From an uncultured Acidobacteriota bacterium (GTDB taxonomy: Bacteria > Acidobacteriota > Thermoanaerobaculia > Gp7-AA8), in assembly GCA_963822445.1 (NCBI GenBank), contig CAWGHO010000003.1, forward strand, positions 576,001 to 640,000: 64,000 nucleotides of DNA. Reading direction: 5' to 3'. The position numbers and the translations under genes are program-made. Shown here one piece after another: positions 35,088 through 52,300 of this stretch. Below the pieces are notes generated by a model, which saw nothing but the letters and a program-made list of their open reading frames with translations, made no database searches and was not told the DNA's origin. The first letter of the stretch is position 1, and the number at the start of each line of letters is the position of its first letter.

Positions 35088-35561
35088 ATGAGCGATGTCC
35101 TGAAAGTCCTCCTTGCAGCGATGGATGAGGCCTACGAGAAGAACGGCTGGCACGGCACGACGCTGCGCAACGCCGTCCGCGGTCTGGATGACGAGGTCGT
35201 GTACTGGCGTCCCGCGCCGGGCCGGCACAACGTCTGGGAGCTGACCGTGCACGCCGCCTACTGGAAATATGTAGCCCGCCGCCGCCTCCTCGGCGGCATC
35301 AAGCGAGGCTCCTTTCCGCTGAAGGGCAGCAACTGGATCGGCTCGCCGGACGACGCGGATCTGCCGACGTGGCAGGAGGCGGTGGCGCTGCTCGAGGAGC
35401 AGCATCGCGCCTTGCGCGAAGTCGTGGCGTCACTCGATGCGAAGGCGCTCGCCGATCGCAAGAAAGTGCGGCTCGTTTACGGAGTCACCGCGCACGACCT
35501 CTATCACACGGGCCAGATTCAGCTGGTGAAGAAGCTGTTCGATGGTCAAAGCGGTTCGTAG
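35088..35561 (+). CDS. DinB family protein
   Basis: GWHG, WELTVHAAYW, HDLYHTGQI metal-binding His pattern. Confidence 0.9.
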   Translation: MSDVLKVLLAAMDEAYEKNGWHGTTLRNAVRGLDDEVVYWRPAPGRHNVWELTVHAAYWKYVARRRLLGGIKRGSFPLKGSNWIGSPDDADLPTWQEAVALLEEQHRALREVVASLDAKALADRKKVRLVYGVTAHDLYHTGQIQLVKKLFDGQSGS

Positions 35562-36355
35562 CCGAGCCGCGCGAGCAATTCCCAATCGATGGAGTCGGTG
35601 ATGATCTGCCGATGCCTTTCGGGCAGCCGCGCCAGATACCGGCGCTCGGTGTAATAGCTGACGTCGAACGTCCTCAGCTCCACGTCGACCGGCGAGTAGT
35701 CCCAGTGCGCGGGCATCACACACCCGCGCGGCACGACCTGCACGTCCGTGGGCGGCAAGGCGAAGCGAGACTCGAGCTCGCGCAGGATGCGCAGCGGATT
35801 CACGACCAGGTCCTCGTGGCGCACGACCGCCCGCGGCGTCAACGCCAGCCAGGCCGCGTAGCGCTCATTGAACGAGTGACACGCGTCCGCGATGTCGTCG
35901 ATGCAGTGCGGGAGCAGCGTTCCGTCGCGATCGGACCAGCGGCGGTGAATGCGGGTCATGCTGACGATCCAGGCATACGGGTCCTTGATCGAGATCAGGA
36001 ATCCCAGCGATCCCCACGCATACGCATCCGCCACGGTGCGGGCGATGTGTCCGATGTACGGCAACTGCCGGTCATCGAGCTGCGTGGTCGTCGCCGAAGG
36101 CGCGGCGAAGGTTGCCTCTTTCACGAACTCGATCGCCGACTGGGACCGGTTCCAGATCAAGGCCAGGTCGAGTGGAAGGGAATGCTTGTCGCCGAGGATG
36201 TGCATCAGCACGCGGGTGGCGGGATGGTTCGTCATCAGCAGCGCGCGCAGCAGGTTCGTCCCGGTGCGCATCTGCCCGTACTGCTTGAAGACGACCGGCG
36301 GAGAGAACGGCGGGACCGCGGTGCTGTCCGCGGTCCCTTCCACGAGCTCCGTCAT
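35546..36355 (-). CDS. Sulfotransferase-like (P-loop) protein
   Basis: GQMRTGTN (5'-PSB-like), GDKH, IKDPYAWIVS (3'-PB-like), VRHEDL; ATGA coupling with the upstream gene. Confidence 0.72.
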   Translation of the reverse strand: MTELVEGTADSTAVPPFSPPVVFKQYGQMRTGTNLLRALLMTNHPATRVLMHILGDKHSLPLDLALIWNRSQSAIEFVKEATFAAPSATTTQLDDRQLPYIGHIARTVADAYAWGSLGFLISIKDPYAWIVSMTRIHRRWSDRDGTLLPHCIDDIADACHSFNERYAAWLALTPRAVVRHEDLVVNPLRILRELESRFALPPTDVQVVPRGCVMPAHWDYSPVDVELRTFDVSYYTERRYLARLPERHRQIITDSIDWELLARLGYEPL

Positions 36356-37899
36356 TGTTTCTTCTTCACGGGTCCGGTCAGCGTCGTCGTCGGCGGACTC
36401 TGTGCGCGCGAGAAGAGAAACGAGTAATCCGACGCGTACGTCCCGGTCGACCCCGTGGCGGCGGTGCGCCGGACGCGGATCGCATTCGATGTGCCGACCG
36501 TCGCGATCGGCGCGCCGGAATGGCAATCGAGACAGGTCGCGGTCGACTGGAAGTACGTCTCCAGGGTCGTGTTCGCGACTTTTTCCTGCGACGGCGACGG
36601 CTGGGGATCGCCCTGGGTCAGCGGCGTTTGCGCGCCCGGAGGAATCATGGTGTTGTTGTTCGGCCAGAGCACGTTGACGAGCTGGTAGTTGAGGTAGACC
36701 GAATTCGGGTTCGACTTCGCGATCTGCCCCCAGACGTAGTAGTTCAGACCGGCGATGTTGTTGACCGCCGCGTTCGTGTCGATCGGGTTCTCGCGCACCA
36801 CCTGCACCGGTGCGTTGTACGGATCGCAAGTTCCCGAGCCGGTGCAGGGGGTTGGCTGGGCGTTCGCCACGCACTTGTAATGATCGGTGCTCGGGTTGCA
36901 GCCGGCGTTGTAGTACGTGTACCAGTCGAGAAGCGTGTTGTTGGCGATGTCGGCGGTGCTCGGCGCGTTGTTCACGTGCTCGAAGGTCGCCCAGATGAAC
37001 TGCTGGCCGTTCGGCGTCTTGTGGATGATGTGCAGGCCGACCAGTCCGACCGTGACGTACTGCGGCGAGTTCGGCGCCCACGGATACGTGACGTAAGCCT
37101 TCGAGGTCTTGTAGTACGGCCAGAGGGTCGAGTCATCGAGCTCGATCCAGGCCGCCTTGACCTCGATCGCTCCGACCGAACCGTACGACGTTTTGCCGCT
37201 CGGCAGACTGATGCCCGGGTTCTGCACGAAGGTCTGCTGGGTTTTGGCGTTGTACAGGCCGTTGATGTTGATGTAGTTGTATTCGTCCTGATTCAGCCGG
37301 ATCTCGTACATCGTGATGAAGCCGTTCTGCGCGGTCAGCCACGAATCGGTGAAAGCCTCGGTGAACTCGGAAAGATCGAGCTGCGCCGCGCCGCTGTCGA
37401 ACTTCGTCATCATCCCCAGCGACTTGGTGCGTGTGCTCTTCGTCTGCCCGGTGCCCTGACCCCACGCAATCGGTTTCAACGCATTCGCGCGAAAGACGTC
37501 GGATGGATCCATGTACGTCTCCCAGACCTTCGGCGTGGTGTCGTTCGGAGTGCCGAACTGCGACGCTGGGGTCGACGTATTCGGCTGCCCCGCGGTCGTG
37601 GTCGAGGCGGTCCAGTTCAGGGCGATGAACTCCTGCCAGGCGAAGCAGTTCATGTCCGCCTGATCGTTGCTCGCCGCGTCGAAAGGCAGTGTGTAGTTGA
37701 CCTTCGGAGGACTGAGACAACTGCTCGTGTCCGCGGGGACGACCGGCGGCGGATTCTGCGCCGGCGCCGCGAAGACCGTGCCGGTGCTCTTCTTCGTGGC
37801 CTTTTTCGCGGCGGGCTTGTCTCCGCCCGCCGGCCCTGCCGCGATCACGAATGCCGCGGCGATCATCAACAGCGGCGCGAGGAACGCCCGCGGTCTCAT
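36352..37899 (-). CDS. Secreted uncharacterised c-type cytochrome (single C-terminal CxxCH)
   Basis: Signal peptide; WQEFIALNW, YEIRLN, IEVKAAW, GLHIIHK, WATFEH, ANTTLETY, CLDCH, DYSFL. Confidence 0.75.
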   Translation of the reverse strand: MRPRAFLAPLLMIAAAFVIAAGPAGGDKPAAKKATKKSTGTVFAAPAQNPPPVVPADTSSCLSPPKVNYTLPFDAASNDQADMNCFAWQEFIALNWTASTTTAGQPNTSTPASQFGTPNDTTPKVWETYMDPSDVFRANALKPIAWGQGTGQTKSTRTKSLGMMTKFDSGAAQLDLSEFTEAFTDSWLTAQNGFITMYEIRLNQDEYNYININGLYNAKTQQTFVQNPGISLPSGKTSYGSVGAIEVKAAWIELDDSTLWPYYKTSKAYVTYPWAPNSPQYVTVGLVGLHIIHKTPNGQQFIWATFEHVNNAPSTADIANNTLLDWYTYYNAGCNPSTDHYKCVANAQPTPCTGSGTCDPYNAPVQVVRENPIDTNAAVNNIAGLNYYVWGQIAKSNPNSVYLNYQLVNVLWPNNNTMIPPGAQTPLTQGDPQPSPSQEKVANTTLETYFQSTATCLDCHSGAPIATVGTSNAIRVRRTAATGSTGTYASDYSFLFSRAQSPPTTTLTGPVKKKQ

Positions 37900-39791
37900 T
37901 CGGAAGCTCCGGTGAGTCCGGTGATTCCGCTGGCGCCGACGATATTGAGGAAGGCCGGTGCGGGCTGAATGGCTGAGGGGTTGTCACCGCGCTGCACGAT
38001 GATCACGCTCTGCAGTCCGGTCGGAGCGGTCGCTCCGACGTTCACGAAGAGATTCAGCAGTGTCGACGCGCTCGGGTACGAATTGCCGGGGACGGCGTAG
38101 AAGATGCCGGTCATGCCCAGGACGGTGGCGTTGACGCCGTTGGCCTGGAAGTAGACGTCGGGAAGACCGGTCGCGCCTTCGTTGCCGAGGGCCGCGGTCA
38201 GGGCCATGTGGCCGGACGCGCCCTGGGCGATGATCGGCGGAATGATGCTGGAGTTACTGGCCAGGTTCATCGTGAAGCCGGCCGGATTCGGTACGTTCGT
38301 GTCGTAGTACGCGTTCCACAGATCCTGATAGACGATCTGCAGCGGCTGCGAGACCGGTCCGGTTGCGCCGGTGACGCACGGATAAACCGGTGCGGTCGCG
38401 CCGGTGACGCCGGACGGCCCGTAGAACGTCGCGCCCTGATATCCGGGAGGGAACGCCCGCGCGAACAGACCGATGTTGAACTGCTCGGCGATCTGCGAGG
38501 CCCACTGAATCGGATAGAAGTTGCCGTCCGGTCCCTGCACCTGGATGTCGCCGACGGTGAACGAGACACCGGCCGCGATCCACGCCGCGGGAATCTGAAA
38601 TGCGACATGGAGAATGAAGTTGCCGGGATAGGGTTTCCCGGTCATCTCGTCGATGAGCGTTTCCTTGCCGCGGATGATCTGCCAGCAATCTTTCGCGGAC
38701 GCGCCGGCCGGCAGGTTCGGGTCTTTCGGCAAGCGGAAGTTCGCCTGGAACACCGAGTCGGTCGGCTGCTGGATGTAGAGGCCGGGAGGATCGGCGAGCG
38801 AGACCACGAGGTTGCCGGTCGCGAGTCCGACCACCTGGTTGACCGACTGCCCGATGTGCGGATCGCTGTGGCGGAAGTTCTGGCCGTACTGGCTGCAGCA
38901 GATGAGCGCCTGCGGATCGGAGTTCCCCATCTGCCGCTGCACCGTTGCCGCGCCGGCCAGACCGAGCTCGGTCTGCAACGTGTTCGGCGTGCTGGTCAGA
39001 TGCATGGCGCCGCCGGTGTCGCTCCCCGCGCCGGCCCACACGCGTTCCGACACCGGTCCGCTGTTCCAGCGGTTCAGCGGGTTGTACGCCGGTTTGCCTG
39101 TCGATGGATCGATGACCGGCTTACCGGTGGTGGGGTCGTAAAGCGTCAGATCGTCGACCGTCACGAGGATCGCCGGCGCGCTCGGCGGCAGTCCGGCGTT
39201 CAGCGTGTCGGTGTAGACCTGCGCCGCGGTTTCCGGATTGACGCGCCACAGCGTCTGCCAGTACTCGGGGTTCTCGCAGCAGAAGTCGACGCGGACGATC
39301 TTGTTGTCGCTCGACCGGCGCGTGACCGACCACTCGCAGTACTCGTCCAGCCAGCCGCGGGGACCGTATGGACCATAAGGCTGCAACGTTCCCTTCCAGT
39401 TCGGCTCGGGACAGCGCGTGGCCGGGATCTGCGGAAACGTTCCGTTGTTGTACGCCCCGGTGTCGGCCATCTGCCAGAGGGTCTGGAAGCCGAAGTTGTA
39501 CGGGTTCGGCGGCTGCTGCCCGGGGCCGTAGTAGACGTTGAGGCGGTTTGGGAACGCGTTCCAGGTGACCGCCTTGACGATGGCGTCGGTGGGCATGTTC
39601 GTGTCGAGCGGGTTGTAGTACCAGAGCTGGTTGGACTCGAACTGCATGTTCCATGGATCGCCGGTGATGCACTGCCGCGTGAACGCGTCGACGTTCGTGC
39701 TCCACAGGCTCTGCATCAGCTGCCAGAGCGTTGGATTGTTGGGGAAGTCGTTCTGCCGCGCCGGGGTCGAAAACTGCTTCAACATGGGCAT
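37896..39791 (-). CDS. Conserved-looking hypothetical protein with a DEYCEW motif and G-x-T-G motifs
   Basis: 631 aa; GGAGG RBS; DEYCEWSV, FCCENPEYW, MHLTSTPNTL, ICCSQYG, RHSDPHIG; coupled to the cytochrome gene. Confidence 0.8.
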   Translation of the reverse strand: MPMLKQFSTPARQNDFPNNPTLWQLMQSLWSTNVDAFTRQCITGDPWNMQFESNQLWYYNPLDTNMPTDAIVKAVTWNAFPNRLNVYYGPGQQPPNPYNFGFQTLWQMADTGAYNNGTFPQIPATRCPEPNWKGTLQPYGPYGPRGWLDEYCEWSVTRRSSDNKIVRVDFCCENPEYWQTLWRVNPETAAQVYTDTLNAGLPPSAPAILVTVDDLTLYDPTTGKPVIDPSTGKPAYNPLNRWNSGPVSERVWAGAGSDTGGAMHLTSTPNTLQTELGLAGAATVQRQMGNSDPQALICCSQYGQNFRHSDPHIGQSVNQVVGLATGNLVVSLADPPGLYIQQPTDSVFQANFRLPKDPNLPAGASAKDCWQIIRGKETLIDEMTGKPYPGNFILHVAFQIPAAWIAAGVSFTVGDIQVQGPDGNFYPIQWASQIAEQFNIGLFARAFPPGYQGATFYGPSGVTGATAPVYPCVTGATGPVSQPLQIVYQDLWNAYYDTNVPNPAGFTMNLASNSSIIPPIIAQGASGHMALTAALGNEGATGLPDVYFQANGVNATVLGMTGIFYAVPGNSYPSASTLLNLFVNVGATAPTGLQSVIIVQRGDNPSAIQPAPAFLNIVGASGITGLTGASE

Positions 39792-39825
39792 GAAGTGTCC
39801 TCCTGCTCTCAATCTCAGGAGTGTT

Positions 39826-39846
39826 GCGGTGAGAAATATCCCTACC
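39826..39846 (-). promoter_or_regulatory. Shared upstream motif GGTAGGGATATTTCTCACCGC, 55 nt before the start codon
   Basis: Similar to the boxes upstream of lodA and the GT4 gene. Confidence 0.5.
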
Positions 39847-39948
39847 TATCCGTCATGAAATAGAGACGTAGGTACTACCTGACCGCCAGAAAAGGTCGAG
39901 CACCGAGGGCTGGAGCGTGGCGTCGTATTCGGTGTGGCCGGGTCATGA

Positions 39949-42414
39949 TCAGCCGATGTAGAAGCTCGGACCATCAGGCCCGGCAACGACGGCCGGACGC
40001 GCGATCTCGTAGTAGTCGAGCGCATCGCGGATCTGCGCGGCACGCTCTTCGAGAAACGCGCGCGGCGCGCCGCACTGGGCCATGCGGTAATGATGTTCTT
40101 TCGGGAAGGTGTTCCCGCCATGCCATTGATAGAGGTAGAGGTGGCCCATCCCGCTGAGCTCCGCGATGGGGATGCGCGCCGCGAGTTGCTCGAGCAGCAC
40201 GGAGTCCTCGCCGCGCTTCGCGTAGTCGCCCTCTTCCGGGTAGCGGAACTGCGGATCGCGGAACATCATCAGCGTCCCTGGCGCGAGGCGTTGCGTGCCC
40301 TGCATCTTTCCGCCGAGGGTCCAGTCGATCCAGAGGACGCAACGCTGATCGGTGAGGTGCTGGAGATGATCGGTCATGAAGCAGGCCCGCGCGCCGCTGC
40401 GCAGCATGAGACCCGCCTGCGTCGCCAGCCGCTGCGGGTGGCTGACGTCGTCGTCGTCGTACTGGCAGATGATCTCGCCGCGCGCGGAGTCGATGGAGAG
40501 ATTGCGCAGCGCGCCCAGGGGGAGATCGTCGCGGCCGGGGATGACGAAGCGGACACCGTCGATGCGCGACTCGCGCACCAGCGATTCGACCGCGGCGCGG
40601 AATCGCGGCGTGCCGTCGGTGACGATCACCAGTTCGCGATTGGTCCAGGTCTGGTCGGCGTACGAGTGAATGGCCCGTTTCACCAGTGAGAGGCGATCGC
40701 GGGTCACCAGCAGACAACTGATCATCGGATCGGGCTCGGTGACCTCGACGCGTGCGGCCCGCTCGCGCGCCGGTCGCTCGGAGGCGATGGTAAGCACGGC
40801 GTCGGTGAAGCGCGTGTTCGCGAATCCGGCCGCGGACCAGATACTCTCGCGCGTCGCCGATTCGCGTGCAAGACGCGCGCGGTAGGCCAGCAGGGATCGG
40901 CCCGTCGCCGCGAATCCGCTGTTGAACGCCTCCGCGGTCGCGTGAGGCCAGGCATTGCCGAGACGTCCGGTGGCCAGACGGAATTGTCCGTACAGCAAGG
41001 CGCAGGCTGGATCTTCGAAGGCCGCGCGGATCGTCGCGAGCGTGCTCGCGTCGGCGAAGCGATCGGACGGCGTGAGGCTGACGATCACATCCTCGGCGTC
41101 CCAGTCCGATGGGACGTCGTGACGGACGCTGAATCGCGGGTCATCGAGCGGCAGCCGCGAGCTCTGATCGCTGTGCGAGCCTTCGTCGATGAAGATGGCC
41201 TCGAAGTCACGCATCTCCTGCCGCAGCAGCGAGTCCACCAGATCGTCGAGCTCGTGGCCTGGATCGCGGAACGACACGACGATCTTCATCGTCACCGGCG
41301 CGGCGACGTTCGGCGTTCGCGGCGTCAGCGCCTCGAGACTGAAGCGCCGGTTGCGGGTCACGTGATCGATGAGCTGCGGGGGCAGCGCCGGCGACGCCAG
41401 CAACCGGTTGTTGACCGCGATCGCTTCGGCATGCCGCCCCGTGTAGAAGCAGGACACCCCGTACTCGACGGGAAGATGGATGTCGTACACGGCGCGCTCG
41501 ACGAAGAGCCGGTCGTGCGCCGGAAGAGGAATGCGCATGGCCGCGTCGAAGAAAAGGTACGAGGTCGCGAACTCTTTCTTGCGCTGGTAGTACGAGCCGA
41601 TGCGGAAAAGAGGACCGGCGCGGTCCGGCCGGAACTGATGCGCGGCGAGGTAGTGCTGCATCACTTCCGGCCAGGGCGTGCCGCGCCGCTCTTCGAGCTG
41701 GGCGATCTGGTACAGCGAGTACCAGACTTCCTCCGGCCACCCGCCCATGGCCGCGCGGCGCTTGTAATGGCGGATGGCCAGCTCGTCATCGCCGCAGTCG
41801 CGATAACTCTGGGCGAGATAGAAGACGTAACGGGCATTGTCGGGATTTTCGAGAAGCGCACGCTCGAGGACCAGGGCGTCGCGGCGATACGTCTGCGGAT
41901 CACGCGCACGAGCGCCATCCCGATGAGGGACGGTCACCAACCCATCGAGATACTCCTCGGTCTTCGCGTCGTCGCAGCGCAGGTACTCGTGCAGCACCCC
42001 TTCGTACCGCCACGGCAGCGCGTTGCGGACGAGCATCTTCCGCTGATACGAACATCCGCCGTAGAGCACGCGGCCGTTGTAGGAATCGGCGGTGAGCTCG
42101 GGCAGCACGAACCCGGGGTCGAGCTGCAGGATCTCGTCGGCGTCGATGATGACCACGTAATCTGCGCGGCCGCGCGCGAACTGCAGCGACTCGCTGCGGT
42201 TGTGGGCGAAGTCGACCCACGGCCGCTCGATCACTTCTCCCGGCAACGCGGCGAGATGTTCGCGGATGACCGCCTGCGTGCCGTCGATGGAGCCGGTGTC
42301 GACGATGACCCAGGTGTCGATGAGCGGACGGACGGAGTCGAGGCAGCGGCGGATGACCGGCGCCTCGTTCTTGACGATCATCGCCAGGCAGATCGTTTGT
42401 CCGTGGCGGTTCAT
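39949..42414 (-). CDS. Multidomain glycosyltransferase: GT2, TPR, degenerate GT2, GT2
   Basis: ICLAMIVKNE, DTGSIDGT, DFAHNR, DADE, GVLHEY; TPR-like FYLAQSYRD; C-terminal ISCLLVTRDR...YDDDD..HPQRL...GEDS. Confidence 0.9.
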   Translation of the reverse strand: MNRHGQTICLAMIVKNEAPVIRRCLDSVRPLIDTWVIVDTGSIDGTQAVIREHLAALPGEVIERPWVDFAHNRSESLQFARGRADYVVIIDADEILQLDPGFVLPELTADSYNGRVLYGGCSYQRKMLVRNALPWRYEGVLHEYLRCDDAKTEEYLDGLVTVPHRDGARARDPQTYRRDALVLERALLENPDNARYVFYLAQSYRDCGDDELAIRHYKRRAAMGGWPEEVWYSLYQIAQLEERRGTPWPEVMQHYLAAHQFRPDRAGPLFRIGSYYQRKKEFATSYLFFDAAMRIPLPAHDRLFVERAVYDIHLPVEYGVSCFYTGRHAEAIAVNNRLLASPALPPQLIDHVTRNRRFSLEALTPRTPNVAAPVTMKIVVSFRDPGHELDDLVDSLLRQEMRDFEAIFIDEGSHSDQSSRLPLDDPRFSVRHDVPSDWDAEDVIVSLTPSDRFADASTLATIRAAFEDPACALLYGQFRLATGRLGNAWPHATAEAFNSGFAATGRSLLAYRARLARESATRESIWSAAGFANTRFTDAVLTIASERPARERAARVEVTEPDPMISCLLVTRDRLSLVKRAIHSYADQTWTNRELVIVTDGTPRFRAAVESLVRESRIDGVRFVIPGRDDLPLGALRNLSIDSARGEIICQYDDDDVSHPQRLATQAGLMLRSGARACFMTDHLQHLTDQRCVLWIDWTLGGKMQGTQRLAPGTLMMFRDPQFRYPEEGDYAKRGEDSVLLEQLAARIPIAELSGMGHLYLYQWHGGNTFPKEHHYRMAQCGAPRAFLEERAAQIRDALDYYEIARPAVVAGPDGPSFYIG

Positions 42415-43535
42415 ACGTCGCCCATGACCTCGAGAAGTTGCCGGGCGACACGCGGCCATGCGTACTCGCTCGCGAGGCGTGCGCCGGGCGCGTGTCCGGT
42501 CACGGTGTCATCGCCGTCGACGATGCGGCGGATCACATCCGCGGCCGCGTCTTCATCGGGATTCCACCAGGAAAGGCCGTCGAAGAAGACGCGGTCTTCG
42601 ATGCCGAGCTCTCCTTCGAACGTCGCCGGTGCGAGCGGCGCGGGGATGAACGCGGCCTCGTCCTCGCAAAGGTATTCGACATACGCGGTGTGCCGCGGCG
42701 CGACGAGCTTCAGTCCGGAGACGGCGGCTTCCATCATCACGAGATCCCAACCTTCGCCGTGGGACATGGAGATGTAGTGCGTGGCGGTGCGGTAGATGGA
42801 GCGGATCTGCTCGTCGGTGCACATGCCGCTCAGGAACAGCACCGGCGCGGCCTCGGCGAGACTCCGTCCTTCGCGCTGCTGCATGGTCAGGAGGTCGGCG
42901 TGGAATTGCTGCAGGACCCGCGGCTGAAACGCGGAGCCTTTGATGATCAGGATGGCGTCGTCATCGCGGCGCGTCGCGCGCATCCAGGCGCGAAGGAGGC
43001 CGAGGTGGTTTTTTCGGGGGCGGAGCTCGGCCATGTTCAGGAAGCGCGTGCGGAAGGACGTGACCGCGCGGCCGTCGGGCAGCGCTAACGACAGCGGCTC
43101 GGCGGGCTCGAGGAAGTAATCGCTCTTCACGCCGAGAGGGGAGATGCGCACCGCGGCCTCCGGGACGCCACTCGCGACCCACGCGTCGCGCGCGGCGCTC
43201 GTCGGAACGATGGTGCAGTCCTGGGTGCGCGCGACGGGAACCCAGGCGGGCGGAATGCGATCGGCTTCGAACATCGTGTAGTTGATGTTGCGCACGCCGG
43301 GGCGCGGCTGCGGGCACATCGTGAAGTGCAGCACGGTGTCGGCTTCGATGGGTGCGGTGAGGCTCTCGAACCAGCTCTCCCGCTGTTCCGCGGGGAGCTC
43401 GATCGACCAGCCGGTGAGGGGGATGAGTTGCACGGCGACGCCGGCGTTCGCGAATCCGCGCACGAACTCCCGCGTATGCCGGTCATACCCGCTCGTTCCT
43501 CGGAACGGCCCGACAACCTGCAGTCGCTCGAGCAT
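42411..43535 (-). CDS. GT4 (GT-B) glycosyltransferase
   Basis: SGY..HTR, YTMFEADRIP, PRKN, SHGEGWDLVMMEA (EX7E); ATGA coupling to the GT2 gene. Confidence 0.9.
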   Translation of the reverse strand: MLERLQVVGPFRGTSGYDRHTREFVRGFANAGVAVQLIPLTGWSIELPAEQRESWFESLTAPIEADTVLHFTMCPQPRPGVRNINYTMFEADRIPPAWVPVARTQDCTIVPTSAARDAWVASGVPEAAVRISPLGVKSDYFLEPAEPLSLALPDGRAVTSFRTRFLNMAELRPRKNHLGLLRAWMRATRRDDDAILIIKGSAFQPRVLQQFHADLLTMQQREGRSLAEAAPVLFLSGMCTDEQIRSIYRTATHYISMSHGEGWDLVMMEAAVSGLKLVAPRHTAYVEYLCEDEAAFIPAPLAPATFEGELGIEDRVFFDGLSWWNPDEDAAADVIRRIVDGDDTVTGHAPGARLASEYAWPRVARQLLEVMGDV

Positions 43536-44343: not shown

Positions 44344-44418
44344 GGGCCCGTAGCTCAGTGGTAGAGCACCTGGCTTTTAACCAGAGGGTCGTAGGTTCGA
44401 TCCCTACCGGGCTCACCA
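44344..44418 (+). tRNA. tRNA-Lys(TTT)
   Basis: GGGCCCG acceptor stem, TAGCTCAGTGGTAGAGC D-arm, CTTTTAA anticodon loop, GGTTCGATCC T-arm, encoded CCA. Confidence 0.96.
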
Positions 44419-44443
44419 GGTTTGCCGCCGCTGACCGCGGCGG

Positions 44444-44528
44444 AATCGAAAATTGAAAATGCAGAATTGAAAACGGCGGGGTCTGGCCCGGCTCATTTTC
44501 AATTTTCAATTTCCCAATTTTCAATTTC
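44444..44528. repeat. Inverted array of AT-rich heptamer repeats (AAATTGA-like / TCAATTT-like) in the tRNA spacer
   Basis: Read directly; the arms flank a GC-rich core. Confidence 0.8.
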
Positions 44529-44542
44529 GGCAACGCCGATCA

Positions 44543-44618
44543 GTCCCCATCGTCTAGAGGCCTAGGACATCGCCCTTTCACGGCGACAACACGGGTTCGA
44601 ATCCCGTTGGGGACGCCA
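44543..44618 (+). tRNA. tRNA-Glu(TTC)
   Basis: GTCCCCA acceptor stem, TCGCC-CTTTCAC-GGCGA anticodon arm, GGTTCGAATCC T-arm, encoded CCA. Confidence 0.97.
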
Positions 44619-44623
44619 ATTCG

Positions 44624-47600
44624 CTACCTCGCGATCTCCACCTCCTTGGCAGCGGGGGTCGATCTCAGCACGACGAACCGCTGCGCCGCATCTTCCACGG
44701 CGTTGAGTGAACCGCCGCTCTCTTCCACGGCATAAGTTTCGGCGAGGATCCCTTCCTCCGCGCGGACGAACAGTCGCGTGCGTGACGCCGGCGTGCCGGT
44801 GAATCGTTGAAGAGAGTTGAGGATCGCCGCGCGCTGGGAGGCGTTCAGGGCGAGCTCCGGACCGTGCGAGTAGAACGTCGAAACGTGAATCGACAGCGTA
44901 TTCGTGGCCGGAACGAAAAAGTGGAATCGGTACCAGACGACATTCCTCGCGTCATTGTTGTCACGTCCCCACGGCGAGGCGATGGACAGGACGCCGGCAT
45001 CGGCCGACCAGCGTAGATCGTCGGGGTAGAACTGCAGCCAGTCCGTCTCCGCCGGTTCACTCGCCGCGGTATGGGCGAGCGCAGGGAATCGCTTGTCGTC
45101 ATATCCGTGCAGGTGAAGCTTGAAGAAAGGATTGCCCAGCTCCCCGGATGCCGCTTTGATCAACGGTCCCTGCGGCACGCGGCTGCTGGCGATGAAGACG
45201 CGGCCGCGGCGGTTTTCAGGTGCGGGCGTGCAGTCGCTTGGCGGTGCAACGATTCCGTCTCGACCAGCGCGTTGCGCCTGCAGTTGGTTCCAGTCCCTCA
45301 CCGGCGTGACGGCGACACGCACCGCCGGGAAGAGCTCGCCCCACTGCGCGGGCTCGTATGGCGCGCGCGAGCCGGCAACAATGACGTTCGGCTCGATGGC
45401 CAGCATCGGATCGTCGGCCGCTCGAGCGAAAAACAGCGTGACGTGATCGGTGTCGCGGCGTACGTTCTCATCCGAGAAGTAAATCGCCACGCTTCGATTC
45501 GTCTCCGCTGACTCCTGTTTCGCGAGCATCGGCAGGAAGTGCGCACTCTCAGGACGTGCGGCGATCCGCGAGTCCGGCACGCTCACCTTGAACGTCCACC
45601 AGGTCTGCTCGCGGAACGTCTGGCAGTCTTCGGGCACGGCGACGATCGTGTATTCGAATTCGTGGCGGTCGCGGTCGGTAATCGCGTCGACCCACGTGAA
45701 CTCCACGTGATCGAGATCGATGGTTTCGAGCACATCGTGTCCCGGGCGAGTGATCACAGCCAGCGGACGATTGCTTCCGGTACCGTCGACGCCCGGCCGG
45801 GTGTCGCGCCGGAAGAGCTTGAATTCGCGAACGGCCGAAAGCTCCAGCGGCCGGTCGATTCCGCTTCCTTCGAGAGGCACACGCCATCCGAGGCGTATCG
45901 TCCAGACGATGTCGGCATCGACCCATGGAAGCTTTCGCCGGACGGTCTCACCGATTGCGGTCACGGTGGCCGTCGCGGCGCTGCCACCGTTTGCGGGCGG
46001 CGCGATCGTGATGGCCGGCGCTTCTTCGTAGTCCCGGCCTCCATCCTCGATGGTGATGGCTGTAATCGCGCCGTTTTCGATCACAGCGTTCGCACGCGCG
46101 CCGGACCCTGGACGATTGTTGCCGGCGGTCAACGTGATCCCCGGTTCCTCGTCATTCGCGTAGCCGCTGCCGCCGCTCTCGACGCGAATTGCCGTGACGC
46201 CCGCCGCGCCGAACTCGCCGAATCTCACGACAGTCGACAACGCATCTCCCGCGGAGGGCAGCGGAATGGCCGTGTCGTAGGTCGCTGTGACCGGGAACGT
46301 GAAGACAGGCAGAACGAGCGAGTGCGCGCCGCGCTCGACGAGCTGCGGCTCGAGACAGAACGCCAGCTGGTTCGGATGCCGGTTGGAGTCATCGACCGAC
46401 GCGCCGAGCTGCTGTCCTACGAACCGGCGATAGATGTCGCGGTTCGTCCGGCAGGCGGCGGTTGCGGGCTGGGCAGCGCAGTCGCGATCGAAGAAGATCT
46501 TCCGCCACCGCACCGCCTCGGCATGCGCAGGAGTCACGCCCTTCACCGTGCAATCGTTCTGTGGAGGGGGAGGCGGCAGGGGCATCACCAGGTCGCGTTC
46601 TTTCTCCAGATCGAAGATCGCCGAATACGCCGCGTCGATGAACACCGACTGCGTGAGGAGAGCGTTGCCCGTACCCGCTTCGAACGTCAGTCCGCCGCTT
46701 CGAATGGTTCCGCCGATCGGGCGGCGTTCGCCATTGCCGGCGAAGACGTGGCGCGTCCACTTCAGGCGTCCTTCATCACCCGGATAGTGCCGCGGTGTAT
46801 CGTCCGCCCACGTGGCCGCGACCTCCGCATTGCAGTGAAATCCCGCGAGCACGCGCGGCTTCGCCAGCTCGGTCGCCTGTGAAGGAAGGGTGTTGTCGTC
46901 CAGCGAAACGACGAACCGGTCGTCGAAGCGGCCCGTTTCGATCAGGTCTTCACCCATGGTCACCAGCCTGGAGAATGACGCCCGGCTCACGTCATCGCGC
47001 CGGCGGGTCTCGCGACCGATCACGATGAAGCGGTCCTGGTCGCGCGTGAGCGAGAAGGGGAGCCATGCCCGGGTCGTCACTTGAACCGCGCCGCAGTGCG
47101 GGTCGGCCGCGCTGAGGTGTGCGGCGGGCTTCAGTGTTTCGGCATCCGGCATGCGGGCCTGACGGCGCCGCCAGTTTTCGCGCGACCGCGCGACGAACCG
47201 CGCGCACGCGCCTTCAAGGTCGGCGCAGTCGACCGTTTGCTCGTCGCGCGTGAGACCGCGGGCGTGCAGCGCAACCCGCCAGTGCGCGAGGGGGAGAGCG
47301 GTCTCGATCTCGATTCGGGCGTTGCGCGAAGTCGCCAGCAGCGCCGTGTCCGGAGTGACCTCGCCGTCCTGCGGTTTCACGGGGCGGCACTGGTCGTCCA
47401 TCGGCTGGAGATCGATGTAGTGCGGCCAGGCGGCGGGAGCATCCATCGGAACGCCGCGCTTGAACTCGACGGAAGCGCACGCGCCCTCACCCTCGTCTAT
47501 GAGCGCGCCGGGACCGGTCCCGGTGATGCCCACGCCGCGCACGCGAAACTCGTACGCCCGCCCGTAACGCGGATAGATCGACGTCGTTCCGATCTCGCGA

Positions 47601-49309
47601 AGGGAGATCAGCGAACCGTTGAAGCTCGGCGGTGCGAGTGCTTCGCCGAGCCGGTCGAAGGCCGCGGCCACGACGGTGCTGCCGCCTGCCCATTCGACGA
47701 AATCGGCCGGCATCGTCAGCACCGTTGGCTTTTCTTTCTTGTCCGCGGAGTGATTCTGGATGGGCTGCACGACGTAGCTTTCGCGAGGACGACGGGTGCG
47801 GAGCACGGCCTCTCCGCGCTCGTCGAAAAGTTCCCGCTCGACCGTGCAGAGCGATTTCCACTCCTCGCTCCCGGCCTCGCGGGCATCGATGCGGTATCCC
47901 TTGAATCCCGTGAAGTAGGGCGTTTCCGCCTGCGTTCCATTGACGATGGCTGAAGTGAGGGCCCGTTCCCAGGTGATGCCGACGGTGTCGTGGGGCGGGG
48001 CGTTGCGGCGCACGCTCTCCGCGGCGTCGGCGAGCTCGCGCTCCTTGTCCTTGATGAAGATGTACTCGCTCGCCTTGCCGGCCGGTTCGTGCGCCTGCGT
48101 ATGCACCGCGAACGCAAGGTCCGTGTCGGCGGTCGCGAGATGGTGGATCGGCGGGAGCGTTTGGCCGGTGGCTGCCATCCGGCGCAGTCTGCTCACCGCT
48201 TCGGCGGGGTTCCCACCAGTGTCCTGTGGATCATCGAGAAGCAAGGCCGGGGCGATCTGGCGAACGGTGACGTGTTCTGCGAAGTAGGTCGGAAGCTCGT
48301 CGCGCCGCAGCACGGTCACCACGCGCGGGCCGGTGTTCTTTGCGCGAGTCGGAACCGGCTCGAAGCCGGGCATCGCCGTGTCGCCGATGAACGGCCGTAC
48401 CCAGATGTCCAGATCGTCCCATGCGTCGGCGCCGTTCGGCAGCGAGAACCAGCGCAGGACGTGAAACATCGCGCCGACCACGGGTTCGTCGCGTGAGACG
48501 CGGCGGATGTCGGCACGCTGGTTTCGCTTCACCGACGTAGGATCGGTAGCGGTCATCGCGGCGATGAGATTCGGTTGCTGCTCGGTGCGAACACGCGAAT
48601 AAATCTGATCGCGCCGCAGCGCTTCGGCGTAGATGAGCTGTTCGGTGAGAGCGCGGTTGCGGATTGCTCCTTCGAGCGACAGAAGGGCCCGAGTGCCACC
48701 GGCGCCCGCCGCCGCTTCGACGGCTGACTGGAACGTTTCCGGACTGCGGACGACCGAATCCACACTGAAGGATTCCCGATCCTCATTGGATTTATCGGGA
48801 GGGGCCTGGTTCGCAGCCTCGACGACTGACGTCAGCGCCGAGAGCAGCTCGTTCGATGACTGGCTGAACATCCCCACGTTCGTTCCCGGAACGGGCTCGC
48901 GGGTCCAGCGGTCGAGATCGGCCAGGAAATTCGCCGAGCCGGCAAAGAGCGGCTTCCGGTCGGTGAATTCCGTCATGCTCAGCGCGCTCATCGCACCTGC
49001 GACAGCGAGGGAACCGCTGATCGTCTGAACCGTGCGCGACACGTAGTCCGGTGCGAGGCGAGCGGTTTCATTCACGCCGATCGCCACGAGCTGTTCGCTC
49101 ACTTCGTCGATGACGAGCGGGGCGAGAACAATCGGATACTCGGCAGGTGGAGCGGGCGTATTCGTCGCCGGGGTGTGCGCCAGTCTCCAGGTCGCGCCCT
49201 TGAACGGATCGTCAGCATGCCAGTCGTCGGTCCAATCGATCAGCACTTCCATTCGCCCGGGCTTGAAGAACTGGTTGATGAACGCGATGACCTTCACGTT
49301 CTCGCTCAT
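44624..49309 (-). CDS. Giant uncharacterised protein B (1561 aa), beta-rich, no signal peptide
   Basis: GGAGG RBS and ATGA overlap with protein A; motifs GYRID, WKSLC, PRYGRAYEFRVRGV; FN3-like segments; a GSGY-type repeat insert. Confidence 0.85.
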   Translation of the reverse strand: MSENVKVIAFINQFFKPGRMEVLIDWTDDWHADDPFKGATWRLAHTPATNTPAPPAEYPIVLAPLVIDEVSEQLVAIGVNETARLAPDYVSRTVQTISGSLAVAGAMSALSMTEFTDRKPLFAGSANFLADLDRWTREPVPGTNVGMFSQSSNELLSALTSVVEAANQAPPDKSNEDRESFSVDSVVRSPETFQSAVEAAAGAGGTRALLSLEGAIRNRALTEQLIYAEALRRDQIYSRVRTEQQPNLIAAMTATDPTSVKRNQRADIRRVSRDEPVVGAMFHVLRWFSLPNGADAWDDLDIWVRPFIGDTAMPGFEPVPTRAKNTGPRVVTVLRRDELPTYFAEHVTVRQIAPALLLDDPQDTGGNPAEAVSRLRRMAATGQTLPPIHHLATADTDLAFAVHTQAHEPAGKASEYIFIKDKERELADAAESVRRNAPPHDTVGITWERALTSAIVNGTQAETPYFTGFKGYRIDAREAGSEEWKSLCTVERELFDERGEAVLRTRRPRESYVVQPIQNHSADKKEKPTVLTMPADFVEWAGGSTVVAAAFDRLGEALAPPSFNGSLISLREIGTTSIYPRYGRAYEFRVRGVGITGTGPGALIDEGEGACASVEFKRGVPMDAPAAWPHYIDLQPMDDQCRPVKPQDGEVTPDTALLATSRNARIEIETALPLAHWRVALHARGLTRDEQTVDCADLEGACARFVARSRENWRRRQARMPDAETLKPAAHLSAADPHCGAVQVTTRAWLPFSLTRDQDRFIVIGRETRRRDDVSRASFSRLVTMGEDLIETGRFDDRFVVSLDDNTLPSQATELAKPRVLAGFHCNAEVAATWADDTPRHYPGDEGRLKWTRHVFAGNGERRPIGGTIRSGGLTFEAGTGNALLTQSVFIDAAYSAIFDLEKERDLVMPLPPPPPQNDCTVKGVTPAHAEAVRWRKIFFDRDCAAQPATAACRTNRDIYRRFVGQQLGASVDDSNRHPNQLAFCLEPQLVERGAHSLVLPVFTFPVTATYDTAIPLPSAGDALSTVVRFGEFGAAGVTAIRVESGGSGYANDEEPGITLTAGNNRPGSGARANAVIENGAITAITIEDGGRDYEEAPAITIAPPANGGSAATATVTAIGETVRRKLPWVDADIVWTIRLGWRVPLEGSGIDRPLELSAVREFKLFRRDTRPGVDGTGSNRPLAVITRPGHDVLETIDLDHVEFTWVDAITDRDRHEFEYTIVAVPEDCQTFREQTWWTFKVSVPDSRIAARPESAHFLPMLAKQESAETNRSVAIYFSDENVRRDTDHVTLFFARAADDPMLAIEPNVIVAGSRAPYEPAQWGELFPAVRVAVTPVRDWNQLQAQRAGRDGIVAPPSDCTPAPENRRGRVFIASSRVPQGPLIKAASGELGNPFFKLHLHGYDDKRFPALAHTAASEPAETDWLQFYPDDLRWSADAGVLSIASPWGRDNNDARNVVWYRFHFFVPATNTLSIHVSTFYSHGPELALNASQRAAILNSLQRFTGTPASRTRLFVRAEEGILAETYAVEESGGSLNAVEDAAQRFVVLRSTPAAKEVEIAR

Positions 49310-52300
49310 GCCGCCACCTCCGTGTGAGTGAAGAAGTCCGCCAGGGCGACGTGCGCGAGCTCGTCCGGTGCAGGGAGGGCGCAGATCCTCTCCGGTCCGG
49401 TCTTCTCGCGCTTGCATGCATTCGGATCGATGCCGAGAAGCGGATCGAGATCGACGGTGAAGGAGACGTCAACGGTCACGAGGAACATCTCGATCGAGGC
49501 CGTGCCGCTGACTTCGAGGTGGGTGAGGATGCTCTCCTCGCAGGCGAGCTTGAGCTGTGCCATCGCCTGCACGCGCACGAAGATGTTGACGATGCCGAGA
49601 ACGGAGGCTTTGAGCTCGAGGCGCGCCACCAGCGCGATCTCATCGAATGAGAATGACTCGTCTCCGCGCACGCCGTCGGGACTGAAGTCGAAGAGGTACG
49701 TCGCGTGCGGGCACCAGACGATGCCCAGCGTGATCGACACCGTTCCGTTCGCAACGCCGATGTCGAACGCGATGGCCAATCCACCCTCGCCGCTGATGCA
49801 GGCCACCGCCTGGAAGCAGACGCGCCGGAATGGGTTGGGGATGTCCAGACCCCCGGTCCTCGGCGGCTTCACCCGCACGGCGATCACGGTCGAAAAACGA
49901 ACCGTGAACGGCGTGACCGTGAGAGTCGGCGGACGCAGGTCCTTGAAGATGGCCCGGCCGATGTCCGGCAAGTCGAGGTCGAGCCACTTCAATCCTCCGA
50001 AGCCCTTCTTCGGCCAGTCGCCGAGGATGAACGTGAACATCGAGCCGGTATTGATGCCGGAGCGGGAGATGTCGATCGAGAGTCCGAGCCGAAAATCGAA
50101 CGTGAGATTTTCCAGCGAGCCGATTCCGAAGGGGATGCGCGGCACCGGCAGGCGCAGGCTGATCATGAAACCCTTCAGACCATCGAGGAGATCGAATCGG
50201 AAAGGCGATTTGCTGCTCCCGCTGTTGCTGCCGCCGCCGTTTCCGCCTCCGAACCCGAGGAGGCCCTTCAGTTTTTCGAGGAGCAATTCGAAGACGATCT
50301 TGAGGAGCTCGCCGCATGGCTCGAGATCGCCCGGCTTGAACGACACTGACTCGCCGGGCTTCGATTGAATGCGGCAGTTCTTCAACACGAGCAGACCGGG
50401 TACGCCGACGTCGGCCATGAGCGTCACGTCGTAATCAGCGGGGTCCTCGAAGCTCTTTTTGAACGTCGCGTTGAACGAACGCGGCGCGATCTTGATGCGG
50501 AAGGCGAGCGTCCCCTCGCACACATCACTGACGCCCTTGGTGAGCTCCGGAAATTCCACGCTCGCATCGACTTCGACCTCGGTCTTCTGATCGCGTTTGA
50601 GGTCGGGCGAGTCAGGGGTGTGGACCTGCTTGTCGTGTATGCGGATCCGCTCGTGGATGGTGAGCGTTCCCTCGTTGTCGAGGAACTCGTCGCTCTCGCC
50701 TCCGAGGACGAGTTGCAGAAGGCCGACGTCGCGAAGCTTGATCTTCCTGCGGAACGTGTGCTCCGCCTTCGCGTTGAGCTCGAACGTGTCGTTGCGCCGC
50801 AAAGGCCGGTCGACGCGCACGACTCCGTCGCCGAGGGTGAGGGCGGTCGCGGCATACTCGGGGACCTCGTCACCGGTGGTCGCGCACCATTTCCCGTCGT
50901 TGGGATTCATCGTGTTGTCGTAGGTGACTGCGACCGCGCGCGAGTCGAGGGTCATGCCGGAGACATCCTCGAGCTCGCCGCGCGCAGTGACCTCGATCTT
51001 GGGCACGTTGGCGGTGCAGCCGGGGATCGGATCGCAAGGCTTCTCGGCGTTGCCCTTCGCCGTCGCGTGCCAGATGACCTGGTGCAGCCGCATCGGCGTG
51101 TCATGAAAGAGCGTGAGCGCCTGAGGCTCACGCAGCGGTACGGTCTGCGTGAGGAATCGCGCGAGCGAAGGGTCGGCGATCACCGTGATCAGACCGATGC
51201 CCTGCAGCGTCCGGTCGCGATCGACCCAGCGCTGATCTCCATTCTTGTAGTCGATGTCGGCCTTGAAGAGCAGCGGCTCGTTCGGGTTGAAATTGACGGA
51301 ATTGATCGGCCGCAGGTTGGCGACTGTGATGTTGCCTTTGTCGCCGTACGTCTTCGATGGCTCGTTGAACCACCATTTCGTGCAGTACCGAAGCTTCCCG
51401 TTTTCCTGACGCGAGGTGAGGGTTAGGACGTTGTAGACGATCCCGTACGGCAGCAGCAGGTCGGCGAAGATGGCGTAGTTCTTCTGGTAGCGGCCGAGAA
51501 AACCGTGCAGCACGAGCTCCTGCATTCCGATCTCACGAACCTCGTTTTGCCAGTCGAATCCGATCGTCCCGCCGATGGGCGAGAGCGCGATCTCGGTTCC
51601 CGGTCTGCGCAGGGCGCGTTGGATCGACGGATTCTTCGACGGAACGACCTGCTCGTCGAAGGCAGTCCTCACGCACGACCGCAACGCTTGTGGATCGAGA
51701 TCCACGACATCGAACGCGTCGTTCACGGGCCGCATCCTGTCGGCGGCGATGGCGCGATACGGCGCGAGCGTACCGGCGAGGCAGCGTTCGTCGGGAGCCC
51801 AGTCGCGGTCCCGCAGAGGCACCAGCGTGCCATCGATGCCGAAACCGGCGTAGATGGCGCGAGTCGTCGCCCCACCTTCCGCGCCCGCCAGGGCGCTGAA
51901 GAGCTCCGCGGGAGAATGGGCGTCGCCGGCCGCCTCGCCGCTCGTTCGCGGCTCCCACATGGTGAGCTCCTGAAAGGCCGGATTGGCATTGTCCTGCCAC
52001 CTTCCGAAATCGAAGTCGCGATGTTCACGGAGCGAGAACGGTGGCAGAGCGATCGTTTTCTGTACGCGTGGCAGTGTCGCCGGCACGGCGGCGCGGAATG
52101 CCTCCTGGGCCAGCGCTACGATCTCGTCGTTCGACGCCGTGACATCGTCGACGGGATCGAGAATGCGGTAACGATCGCGATCGATCTCCCACCGAATCGT
52201 GGCCGGTCTCGCGAGCGCGATCAGGTCGCCCCGGTAGTCGTCCGTCGCCGGTGGCGTGTTCGTTTTGGTCGCTTTGAGATGCACCCAGTCGCCCGCGGCC

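Follow-up and report, generated by a model that had tools for sequence, protein, structure and literature searches.

Why would a bacterium keep two glycosyltransferases (GTs) and a sulfotransferase-like protein in one run of genes with a likely pair of redox proteins? The question is raised by a locus in 64,000 nt of DNA from an uncultured Acidobacteriota bacterium (contig CAWGHO010000003.1, positions 576,001 to 640,000; this whole stretch is called the window). Here five co-directional minus-strand genes encode, in order, a GT4-family glycosyltransferase (GT4), a multi-domain glycosyltransferase (multi-GT), the 'DEYCEW' protein (P3), a secreted protein with a haem-binding motif (P4) and a sulfotransferase-like protein (P5). 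An earlier note on this DNA had proposed a dedicated modification cassette, in which the GTs glycosylate Thr or Ser in short collagen-like G-x-T-G motifs of both P3 and the cytochrome P4, and the sulfotransferase decorates the glycan. We find that the locus joins a conserved P3-P4 module and lineage-specific soluble modifying enzymes. Targeted glycosylation of P3, perhaps with sulfation, in the cytoplasm and on flexible G-x-T segments is the reading that we tentatively favour, with somewhat less than even confidence.

The genes and the features that delimit them are as follows, with coordinates given as positions of the window.

42411..43535, minus strand: GT4, GT4-family glycosyltransferase, soluble; 374 aa; PF00534 at E 1e-7, 32.1 bits
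39949..42414, minus strand: multi-GT, multi-domain glycosyltransferase; 821 aa; PF00535 at 100.7 bits over three stretches
39792..39948, minus strand: gap between multi-GT and P3, 157 nt, with a GGAGG ribosome-binding site before the P3 start, read from the sequence
37896..39791, minus strand: P3, the 'DEYCEW' protein; 631 aa; GGAGG upstream
36352..37899, minus strand: P4, secreted mono-haem-motif protein with a hydrophobic N-terminus; 515 aa; CxxCH
36520..36534, minus strand: CLDCH haem-c binding motif of P4, residues 456-460, from the homologue alignment
35546..36355, minus strand: P5, putative sulfotransferase-fold protein by family profile, soluble; 269 aa

All five genes listed in the earlier note are thus present on one strand, and at three junctions, GT4/multi-GT, P3/P4 and P4/P5, the stop codon of one gene overlaps the start codon of the next (ATGA at the last). 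Hydrophobic segments are absent from GT4 (no hydrophobic 19-mer), multi-GT, P3 and P5; P4 alone has one, at its N-terminus. A promoter and terminator scan of the cluster gave counts at chance level, including in the gap between multi-GT and P3.

G-x-T-G motifs are enriched in P3

The strings that had drawn attention to the locus all occur in the translations: GPSGVTGAT, VTGATGP, EGATG, VGATAPTG and GASGITGLTGASE in P3, and ATGSTG and LTGP in P4. Their placement in P3 follows its division into four parts, assigned from a homologue alignment, an AlphaFold2 (AF2) model with its predicted local distance difference test scores (pLDDT), structural comparison and motif counts.

38457..39791, minus strand: P3 core, residues 1-445 (alignment and AF2 model)
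38382..38444, minus strand: clade-specific insertion, residues ~450-470, GYQGATFYGPSGVTGAT..., rich in G-x-T (alignment gap elsewhere)
37932..38360, minus strand: IPT/TIG-like Ig domain, residues 478-620, bearing EGATG, GMTG and VGATAPTG (VIA-align)
37899..37940, minus strand: C-terminal tail, residues 618-631, VGASGITGLTGASE, with four G-x-[ST] triplets (motif count, pLDDT)

P3 contains six G-x-T-G motifs (at 461, 475, 539, 559, 622 and 625), all past residue 458. Composition shuffles of the whole protein gave a mean of 0.42 motifs, with 0 of 2000 reaching six; for residues 431-631 the mean was 0.24, and again none (0 of 5000) reached six. P4 has a single G-x-T-G, no more than chance would give (shuffle mean 0.22, P 0.20), its motifs lie in unconserved columns, and it is exported by a Sec-type signal. 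Of the two proposed acceptors, P3 is therefore plausible, whereas the cytochrome is unlikely and was rejected. Across the genome, the density of G-x-T-G is 0.43 per 1000 aa (7955 open reading frames, ORFs, filtered by GC content at third codon positions), compared with 9.4 per 1000 in P3. Among ORFs of 200-1500 aa this places P3 fourth, behind two collagen-like ORFs and one 327-aa ORF.

The enrichment is restricted to one clade. Among the best 120 P3 homologues, only the window protein (six), P0002 (seven) and P0003 (five) are rich in the motif, and 100 have none. A 14-residue insertion is common to a clade made up of the window P3, P0002, P0003, P0285 and P0004, and all other aligned homologues have a gap at this position; 'TGAT' and 'GAT[GST]LP' are kept within the clade across ~35% protein divergence. 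The tail varies within the clade and is kept in a 93% identical relative described below. In the AF2 model the insertion (pLDDT 54 for residues 451-460 and 70 for residues 461-470) and the tail (67, then 34) score lowest within the C-terminal portion.

In collagen-like glycoproteins of the Bacillus BclA and C. difficile BclA3/SgtA type, G-x-T triplets are the presumed acceptors of O-glycans, and glycosyltransferases are encoded nearby. P3 resembles them in having such triplets beside GT genes. It differs in that no more than 3-4 triplets are consecutive, and these are scattered in the loops and tail of an enzyme-like globular protein. P3 was thus rejected as a collagen-like protein itself, with no PF01391 match and longest runs of 3-4 triplets. 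Two large ORFs with true collagen-like (G-P-T)n, including GVTGATGP, are found outside the window (G000 C3:316465-321103), inside what looks like a phage-tail-like (contractile injection) cluster, as judged only by the N-termini of neighbouring proteins.

multi-GT resembles protein-modifying glycosyltransferases

GT4 matches PF00534 over residues 165-298, at 32.1 bits for a cut-off of 26.4, and PF13692 at 31.3 bits, and so belongs to GT family 4. In multi-GT, a piecewise Pfam scan detected a GT2 domain at residues 11-97 (49.2 bits, above cut-off), a tetratricopeptide repeat (TPR) region at residues ~180-300 (TPR_14 at residues ~198-234, 26.1 bits for a cut-off of 23.5) and a second GT2 domain at residues ~567-675 (42.8 bits, above cut-off). 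The stretch between them at residues ~379-418 is GT2-like and stays under threshold, at 17 bits for a cut-off of 23.3, so that multi-GT has two solid GT2 domains and not three. The order GT2-TPR-GT2-GT2 described in the earlier note is right in its first GT2, its TPR and its last GT2, while the middle GT2 is doubtful.

A PDB sequence search aligned the N-terminal GT2 best with GmaR (E 8.3e-10, residues 9-99), followed by a ThuS-like chain (E 6.6e-5) and SunS (E 6.9e-5, residues 7-218 against SunS 55-275). Designed TPR proteins matched residues 175-295, and heparosan synthase and PglI, which are glycan-extending GT2s, matched residues 551-680. With these as its top three solved relatives, and with a TPR region after the GT2, multi-GT is probably a glycosyltransferase of the protein or peptide type, in agreement with what had been suggested for it.

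GmaR of Listeria monocytogenes is described as a GT and TPR enzyme that puts N-acetylglucosamine on flagellin, with the TPR proposed to aid substrate recognition (PMC9638930). Its N-terminal GT is followed by TPR, and as a soluble enzyme of the cytoplasm it acts on one dedicated protein ahead of export (PMC9638930); all of this would apply to multi-GT as well. The two differ after the TPR, where GmaR has an anti-repressor domain and multi-GT the weak GT2-like stretch and a solid GT2. They also differ in target, which is flagellin for GmaR and presumably another protein for multi-GT. SunS and ThuS, which act in glycocin maturation, align with multi-GT in the GT2 domain and are encoded beside their substrate; however, their acceptor is Cys in small peptides, and no such peptide gene is present at the window locus. 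In the flagellin glycosylation systems of FlmG and Maf, too, a modular enzyme with TPR and GT parts O-glycosylates one specific protein in the cytoplasm (PMC7591256 and others). They are set apart by another GT fold or family and by nonulosonic-acid donors.

Partial homologues of multi-GT in two other genomes (G039 and G014) have no Gx[ST]G-rich neighbour. A second GT2-TPR head is present outside the window (G000 C3:334257-335030), ~13 kb from the collagen-like genes. It is degenerate, with pieces 67% and 51% identical and one in-frame TGA, and adjoins an ORF that is possibly transposase-like, judging by sequence only.

The motifs are lacking where glycosyltransferase neighbours are lacking

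The earlier note had named, as a check on its proposal, whether the motifs are equally present in homologues without GT neighbours. We scanned with Pfam the 114 nearest flanking ORFs of 29 non-redundant foreign P3 loci. None of the 114 had a GT or sulfotransferase domain, and the motifs are indeed lacking there, with no G-x-T-G in 21 of the P3 proteins, one in seven and two in one, so the check came out in favour of the proposal. A tblastn search with GT4, multi-GT and P5 gave no match in any foreign genome or metagenome locus. The neighbourhood counts leave out the 65-67% identical relatives P0002, P0003/P0285 and P0004, and the metagenome scan contained no locus above 56% identity (full-length at most 54%), P0002-P0004 not being among its loci.

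Closer to the window, P3-P4 loci were found in 3 of 34 other genomes of the same genus (one of them G002, an unpublished genome), with a P3 that is ~60% identical and no adjacent GT, and a phylum search for P3 at E<=1e-100 returned none in 400 other genomes; neither search yielded a genome with a closer relative. This patchy spread suggests that P3 arrived horizontally.

The cluster itself has been retained in a second strain. In a soil-metagenome run (X1), contigs with ~90-95% DNA identity tile GT4, multi-GT, P3, P4 and P5 in the same order, and one 5008-nt contig carries both multi-GT and P3. In this relative, P3 (P0289) shows 93% identity and retains every one of the six G-x-T-G motifs. Over 1936 nt of the P3 region there are 151 nucleotide differences and 43 amino-acid changes, and P3 is therefore under purifying selection. 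As the relative is of the same lineage, it cannot count as a second, independent case in which motifs and GT neighbours go together.

The conserved P3-P4 pair

Neither P3 nor P4 could be placed in a Pfam or NCBIfam family; for P3 there was no Pfam match at E<=0.1 in a library without PF26676, the label that a precomputed annotation gives it. No text matching PF26676 or 'DEYCEW' was found in the literature. The P3 core (residues 1-445) nonetheless belongs to a large family: of 1.84 billion representatives of clusters formed at 50% identity, 613 match it at E<=1e-3. In the homologue alignment D149-E150-Y151-C152-E153, H264, C298 and R307-S309-D310-P311 are invariant. Homologues with 50-67% identity come from Acidobacteriota, Burkholderiaceae and Myxococcota, and those with 31-49% from Pseudomonas, Vibrio, Caulobacter and Cyanobacteria. 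Four loci of the same genus (L131-L134) encode 393-489-aa paralogues that keep QDEYCEWH, HLTHPANTL and NRSSDPLIG. Their C-terminal regions are shorter and replace the ~190-residue TIG-bearing part, so the core is an independent module.

AF2 modelled P3 with confidence, both whole (pLDDT 90.4, predicted template-modelling score, pTM, 0.92) and as the core alone (pLDDT 88.7, pTM 0.90). Searches with the core model gave a best Foldseek E of 0.99 and no VIA-align match at Z>=2 among 48161 chains, an unusually empty result, nor in a second look at 147; since a model of more than 400 residues can miss single-domain matches, a blank search is no proof of a new fold. A PDB search with the single P3 sequence returned only a DsbG match at E 0.83, nothing relevant, and for P4 there was none. 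The C-terminal domain (residues 478-620) is IPT/TIG-like, with EBF3 (3n50) as best match (VIA-align Z 8.6, rmsd 2.5, 85 aligned residues) and the IPT domains of plexin A1 and Met next (Z 8.4 and 8.4), values near 8 being only moderately above background in VIA-align. A protein-language search with whole P3 gave weak leads (0.75-0.77) to TIG and collagen-repeat proteins of Acidobacteriota, and with the core it gave nothing. Most P3 proteins have no signal peptide. Clear twin-arginine leaders are present in 2 of 120 homologues (P0108 and P0110; locus L014; leaders DRRTFLK and NRRVFLK), so that at least some P3 proteins are exported folded.

P4 has exactly one CxxCH in all 120 of 120 homologues, with C456, C459 and H460 invariant. 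Its N-terminus has windows above 1.6 on the Kyte-Doolittle scale, and the N-termini of its homologues look like signal peptides. As an exported protein with a conserved CxxCH, P4 is by motif a putative c-type cytochrome; no Pfam cytochrome family matches it. A second element, A-S-D-Y-S-F-L-F (residues 489-499, window ~36400-36450), lies 30-40 residues past the CxxCH and is nearly invariant in the aligned homologues.

Of 57 genome loci, 52 have P4 as the next gene downstream of P3. In the metagenomes the two are adjacent at 53 of 69 loci, with another arrangement at two of these 53. The 5 and 16 loci without P4 all end within ~360 nt, and mostly within 35 nt, of the P3 match, so P4 accompanies P3 at every foreign locus that extends far enough downstream. 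P3 and P4 are a conserved pair.

What this pair might do is indicated by its neighbours in the 29 non-redundant foreign loci. A tyrosinase gene (PF00264, mostly ~600 aa) is beside P3 in 16 of the 29, AsnC-type regulators occur in eight and LodA-type oxidases in three. The tyrosinase gene (L006, L008, L015, L026-L028, L032, L034, L039, L042, L053, L055, L056, L068, L081 and L125) is upstream of P3 and on the same strand in all but L015, where it is downstream; the AsnC-type regulator is often divergent and ahead of it. In Caulobacter-type loci, a ferritin-like gene, LodA and an FAD protein follow P4. The window has no nearby tyrosinase: the two copies in this genome are outside it, one of them on another contig.

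Operons of LodA-type proteins with tyrosinases and multicopper oxidases are presented as a functionally linked and co-regulated set of oxidases (PMC4417212). P3-P4 homologues fit among such genes in Caulobacter-type loci, where they lie between tyrosinase and the LodA and FAD-protein genes. They differ in that no structural relative of P3 is detectable and that the LodA_N and LodA_C Pfam domains are absent from it; at some homologous loci, LodA domains are instead encoded by genes of their own nearby. LodA, like most P3 proteins, lacks a signal peptide. Because P3-P4 is found elsewhere beside tyrosinase and sometimes LodA and LodB genes, the pair most likely works as an oxidative or redox enzyme that has a cytochrome of its own.

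P5 may be a distant member of a sulfotransferase family

P5 had been called sulfotransferase-like. Taken singly it reaches only 18.4 bits against PF13469 (Sulfotransfer_3, cut-off 27), over residues 27-56, and has no match in the PDB. At the family level the description has support: 19 of 44 homologues carry PF13469 in a precomputed annotation, and a family profile matches the CurM sulfotransferase (E 3e-4) and, more weakly, OLS ST (E 0.17), both over profile positions 103-196 only. G27, T31-G32-T33-N34, K57-H58, S122 and P126 are invariant in the family. The invariant loop G-x-x-R-T-G-T-N resembles, by eye, the 5'-phosphosulfate-binding loop. CurM is alike in the region around the 3'-phosphate-binding site, where the P5 family profile matches; it differs in being part of a polyketide synthase, whereas P5 stands alone, and the window P5 itself is under the Pfam cut-off. 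The CurM sulfotransferase sulfates a small-molecule intermediate, and TPST and RaxST are further members of PF13469. The genome encodes an APS kinase; 3'-phosphoadenosine 5'-phosphosulfate (PAPS) can therefore be made, and sulfation is feasible. A literature search for sulfotransferase, GT, TPR, O-glycosylation and Acidobacteria in combination returned no relevant paper.

Relatives of P5 occur in other settings. One homologue (P0243, 48% identical) is probably on the same 16582-nt contig as a P4 homologue (P0122, 68%). In G001 (L145, 3081-5648) a P5-like domain forms the C-terminus of an 856-aa TPR-rich fusion (TPR with Sulfotransfer_3/1). In G025, an unpublished genome of the same genus (L144, 3142-11084), a P5-like gene has in its vicinity a 561-aa GT4, which sits 10 nt after a gene for a 633-aa flavin amine oxidase without any Gx[ST]G; an ORF of the HBL family (pore-forming enterotoxin-like) is downstream.

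A model for modification of P3 and its alternatives

What we observed is the gene order, the domain families, the enrichment of the motif and its restriction to one clade, and the retention of the cluster by a second strain; the mechanism outlined here is inferred at every step. In the cytoplasm, the GmaR- and SunS-like GT2 head of multi-GT would be held on P3 by the TPR region and would add a first sugar to Thr or Ser in the P3 insertion (residues ~450-480), in exposed loops of the TIG domain and in the C-terminal tail. The C-terminal GT2 of multi-GT, together with GT4, would then lengthen the glycan, and P5 may move sulfate from PAPS onto the glycan or directly onto a hydroxyl. P4, exported unfolded via its Sec-type signal, is probably not a substrate. 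Of the dedicated cassette first proposed, the protein-type GT and the restricted motifs thus remain, and the cytochrome acceptor does not.

Several observations weigh against this model. A single clade supplies all the cases in which motifs and GT neighbours coincide, for an effective n of 1, and within that clade P0004 has the insertion and only one G-x-T-G. One of the six motifs, GMTG (559), falls in what the AF2 model predicts to be a confidently modelled strand, and two 25-nt VTGAT-coding stretches, read from the DNA, are near-identical, so that a local duplication gives two of the six. On the enzyme side, the middle GT2-like stretch of multi-GT is below threshold, and the NCBIfam SunS model TIGR04195 matches multi-GT at E 1.2e-7 with 31 bits for a cut-off of 350, so multi-GT is not in the SunS equivalog. 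P5 falls short of PF13469. That it sulfates a glycan is pure inference; the P5-like gene of G025 keeps company with a GT4 and an amine oxidase devoid of the motif. In the soil relative, ~1.1 kb of unaligned DNA, perhaps an additional gene or else an insertion element, replaces 84 nt (39806-39889) of the gap between multi-GT and P3. With 157 nt here and ~1.1 kb more there, GT4 and multi-GT may be a separate transcription unit.

The gap, and its expansion in the relative, are what would be expected if the locus were a mosaic without functional coupling, in which GT4 and multi-GT on one side and P3-P4, with or without P5, on the other were joined beside tRNA genes, and the G-x-T segments were neutral low-complexity duplications in a high-GC genome. 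The tRNA-Lys and tRNA-Glu genes at the cluster edge, the patchy occurrence of P3 (the three same-genus genomes all lacking adjacent GTs, and none in 400 across the phylum), the duplication of the VTGAT segment at the DNA level and the true collagen-like (G-P-T)n genes elsewhere in the genome are all consistent with it. Neutral segments sit poorly with the retention of 'TGAT' and 'GAT[GST]LP' over ~35% divergence in the clade, and with a 93% identical relative that keeps six G-x-T-G motifs amid 151 nucleotide and 43 amino-acid changes. Nor does the absence of coupling fit well with a five-gene order that is the same in the relative, or with P5 overlapping the P4 stop codon. We regard a mosaic as unlikely, though it is a serious competitor to targeted glycosylation of P3.

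A coupled alternative is that the GTs and P5 share a pathway with P3-P4 and conjugate a small phenolic or quinone-type substrate or product, for export or self-protection. The company that P3-P4 keeps elsewhere speaks for it, with tyrosinase in 16 of 29 loci and LodA-type oxidases in three, as do the linked oxidase sets of LodA operons with tyrosinases and multicopper oxidases (PMC4417212). The G025 locus, in an unpublished genome, also points this way, since the P5 homologue there is close to a GT4 and to a flavin amine oxidase that lacks Gx[ST]G. So does CurM, the sole solved relative of P5, which acts on a small-molecule intermediate. Against small-molecule conjugation, the first GT2 of multi-GT is closest to protein and peptide GTs and comes with a TPR region, the clade-only G-x-T insertion and tail would be left without a reason, and neither a transporter nor a further biosynthetic gene is found within the cluster. 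Such a pathway also seems to us improbable, if still credible.

Direct sulfation by P5 of Tyr, Ser or Thr in P3, or in P4 before its export, independent of any glycan and in the manner of RaxST and TPST, is very improbable. In its favour, the ATGA overlap couples translation of P5 to that of P4, the homologues P0243 and P0122 probably share a contig and P4 has an acidic-flanked Tyr in its nearly invariant A-S-D-Y-S-F. Against it, ASDYSF is equally kept in homologues with no sulfotransferase among the neighbours sampled, no solved Tyr sulfotransferase resembles P5 at E<=1, and P4 leaves by a Sec-type signal.

Implications

Flagellins, adhesins and glycocins are familiar targets of dedicated glycosylation in the cytoplasm. 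To our knowledge it is hardly known for bacterial enzymes, and sulfated protein glycans are rare in bacteria. If P3 is indeed glycosylated as we tentatively propose, its G-x-T segments would act as a portable sequon that comes together with its writer enzymes. A fuller version of the proposal, which we consider distinctly unlikely as a whole, would make P3-P4 a new class of redox enzyme with a catalytic core of new fold and invariant DEYCE, His and Cys residues, perhaps a protein-derived cofactor, its own c-type cytochrome as partner, and a place among the tyrosinase and LodA oxidases; in this lineage a GmaR-like multi-headed GT, GT4 and a sulfotransferase would put a sulfated O-glycan on 'mini-collagen' G-x-T sequons grafted onto its flexible parts, and the locus would be a dedicated cassette for glycosylation and sulfation of a bacterial enzyme. 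Whatever its modification, the P3-P4 pair is strongly conserved, has neither a name nor a detectable solved fold and is found in oxidase neighbourhoods, which makes it a clear target for enzyme discovery.

Flanking genes

On one side the cluster is followed by genes for DinB, BlaI/BlaR1 and an M13 peptidase, and on the other by two tRNA genes and a zinc-ribbon protein. The cluster was considered as a polysaccharide locus and rejected, as its flanks contain no genes for polysaccharide export or glycan assembly. An Rfam scan found the two tRNAs and nothing else.

44344..44618, plus strand: tRNA-Lys(TTT) and tRNA-Glu(TTC), bounding the cluster upstream (ARAGORN; Rfam tRNA 71.3 and 61.1 bits)

Directly past the tRNA genes is a 1597-aa ORF (44624-49417, minus strand) that matches no Pfam family at E<=0.001.

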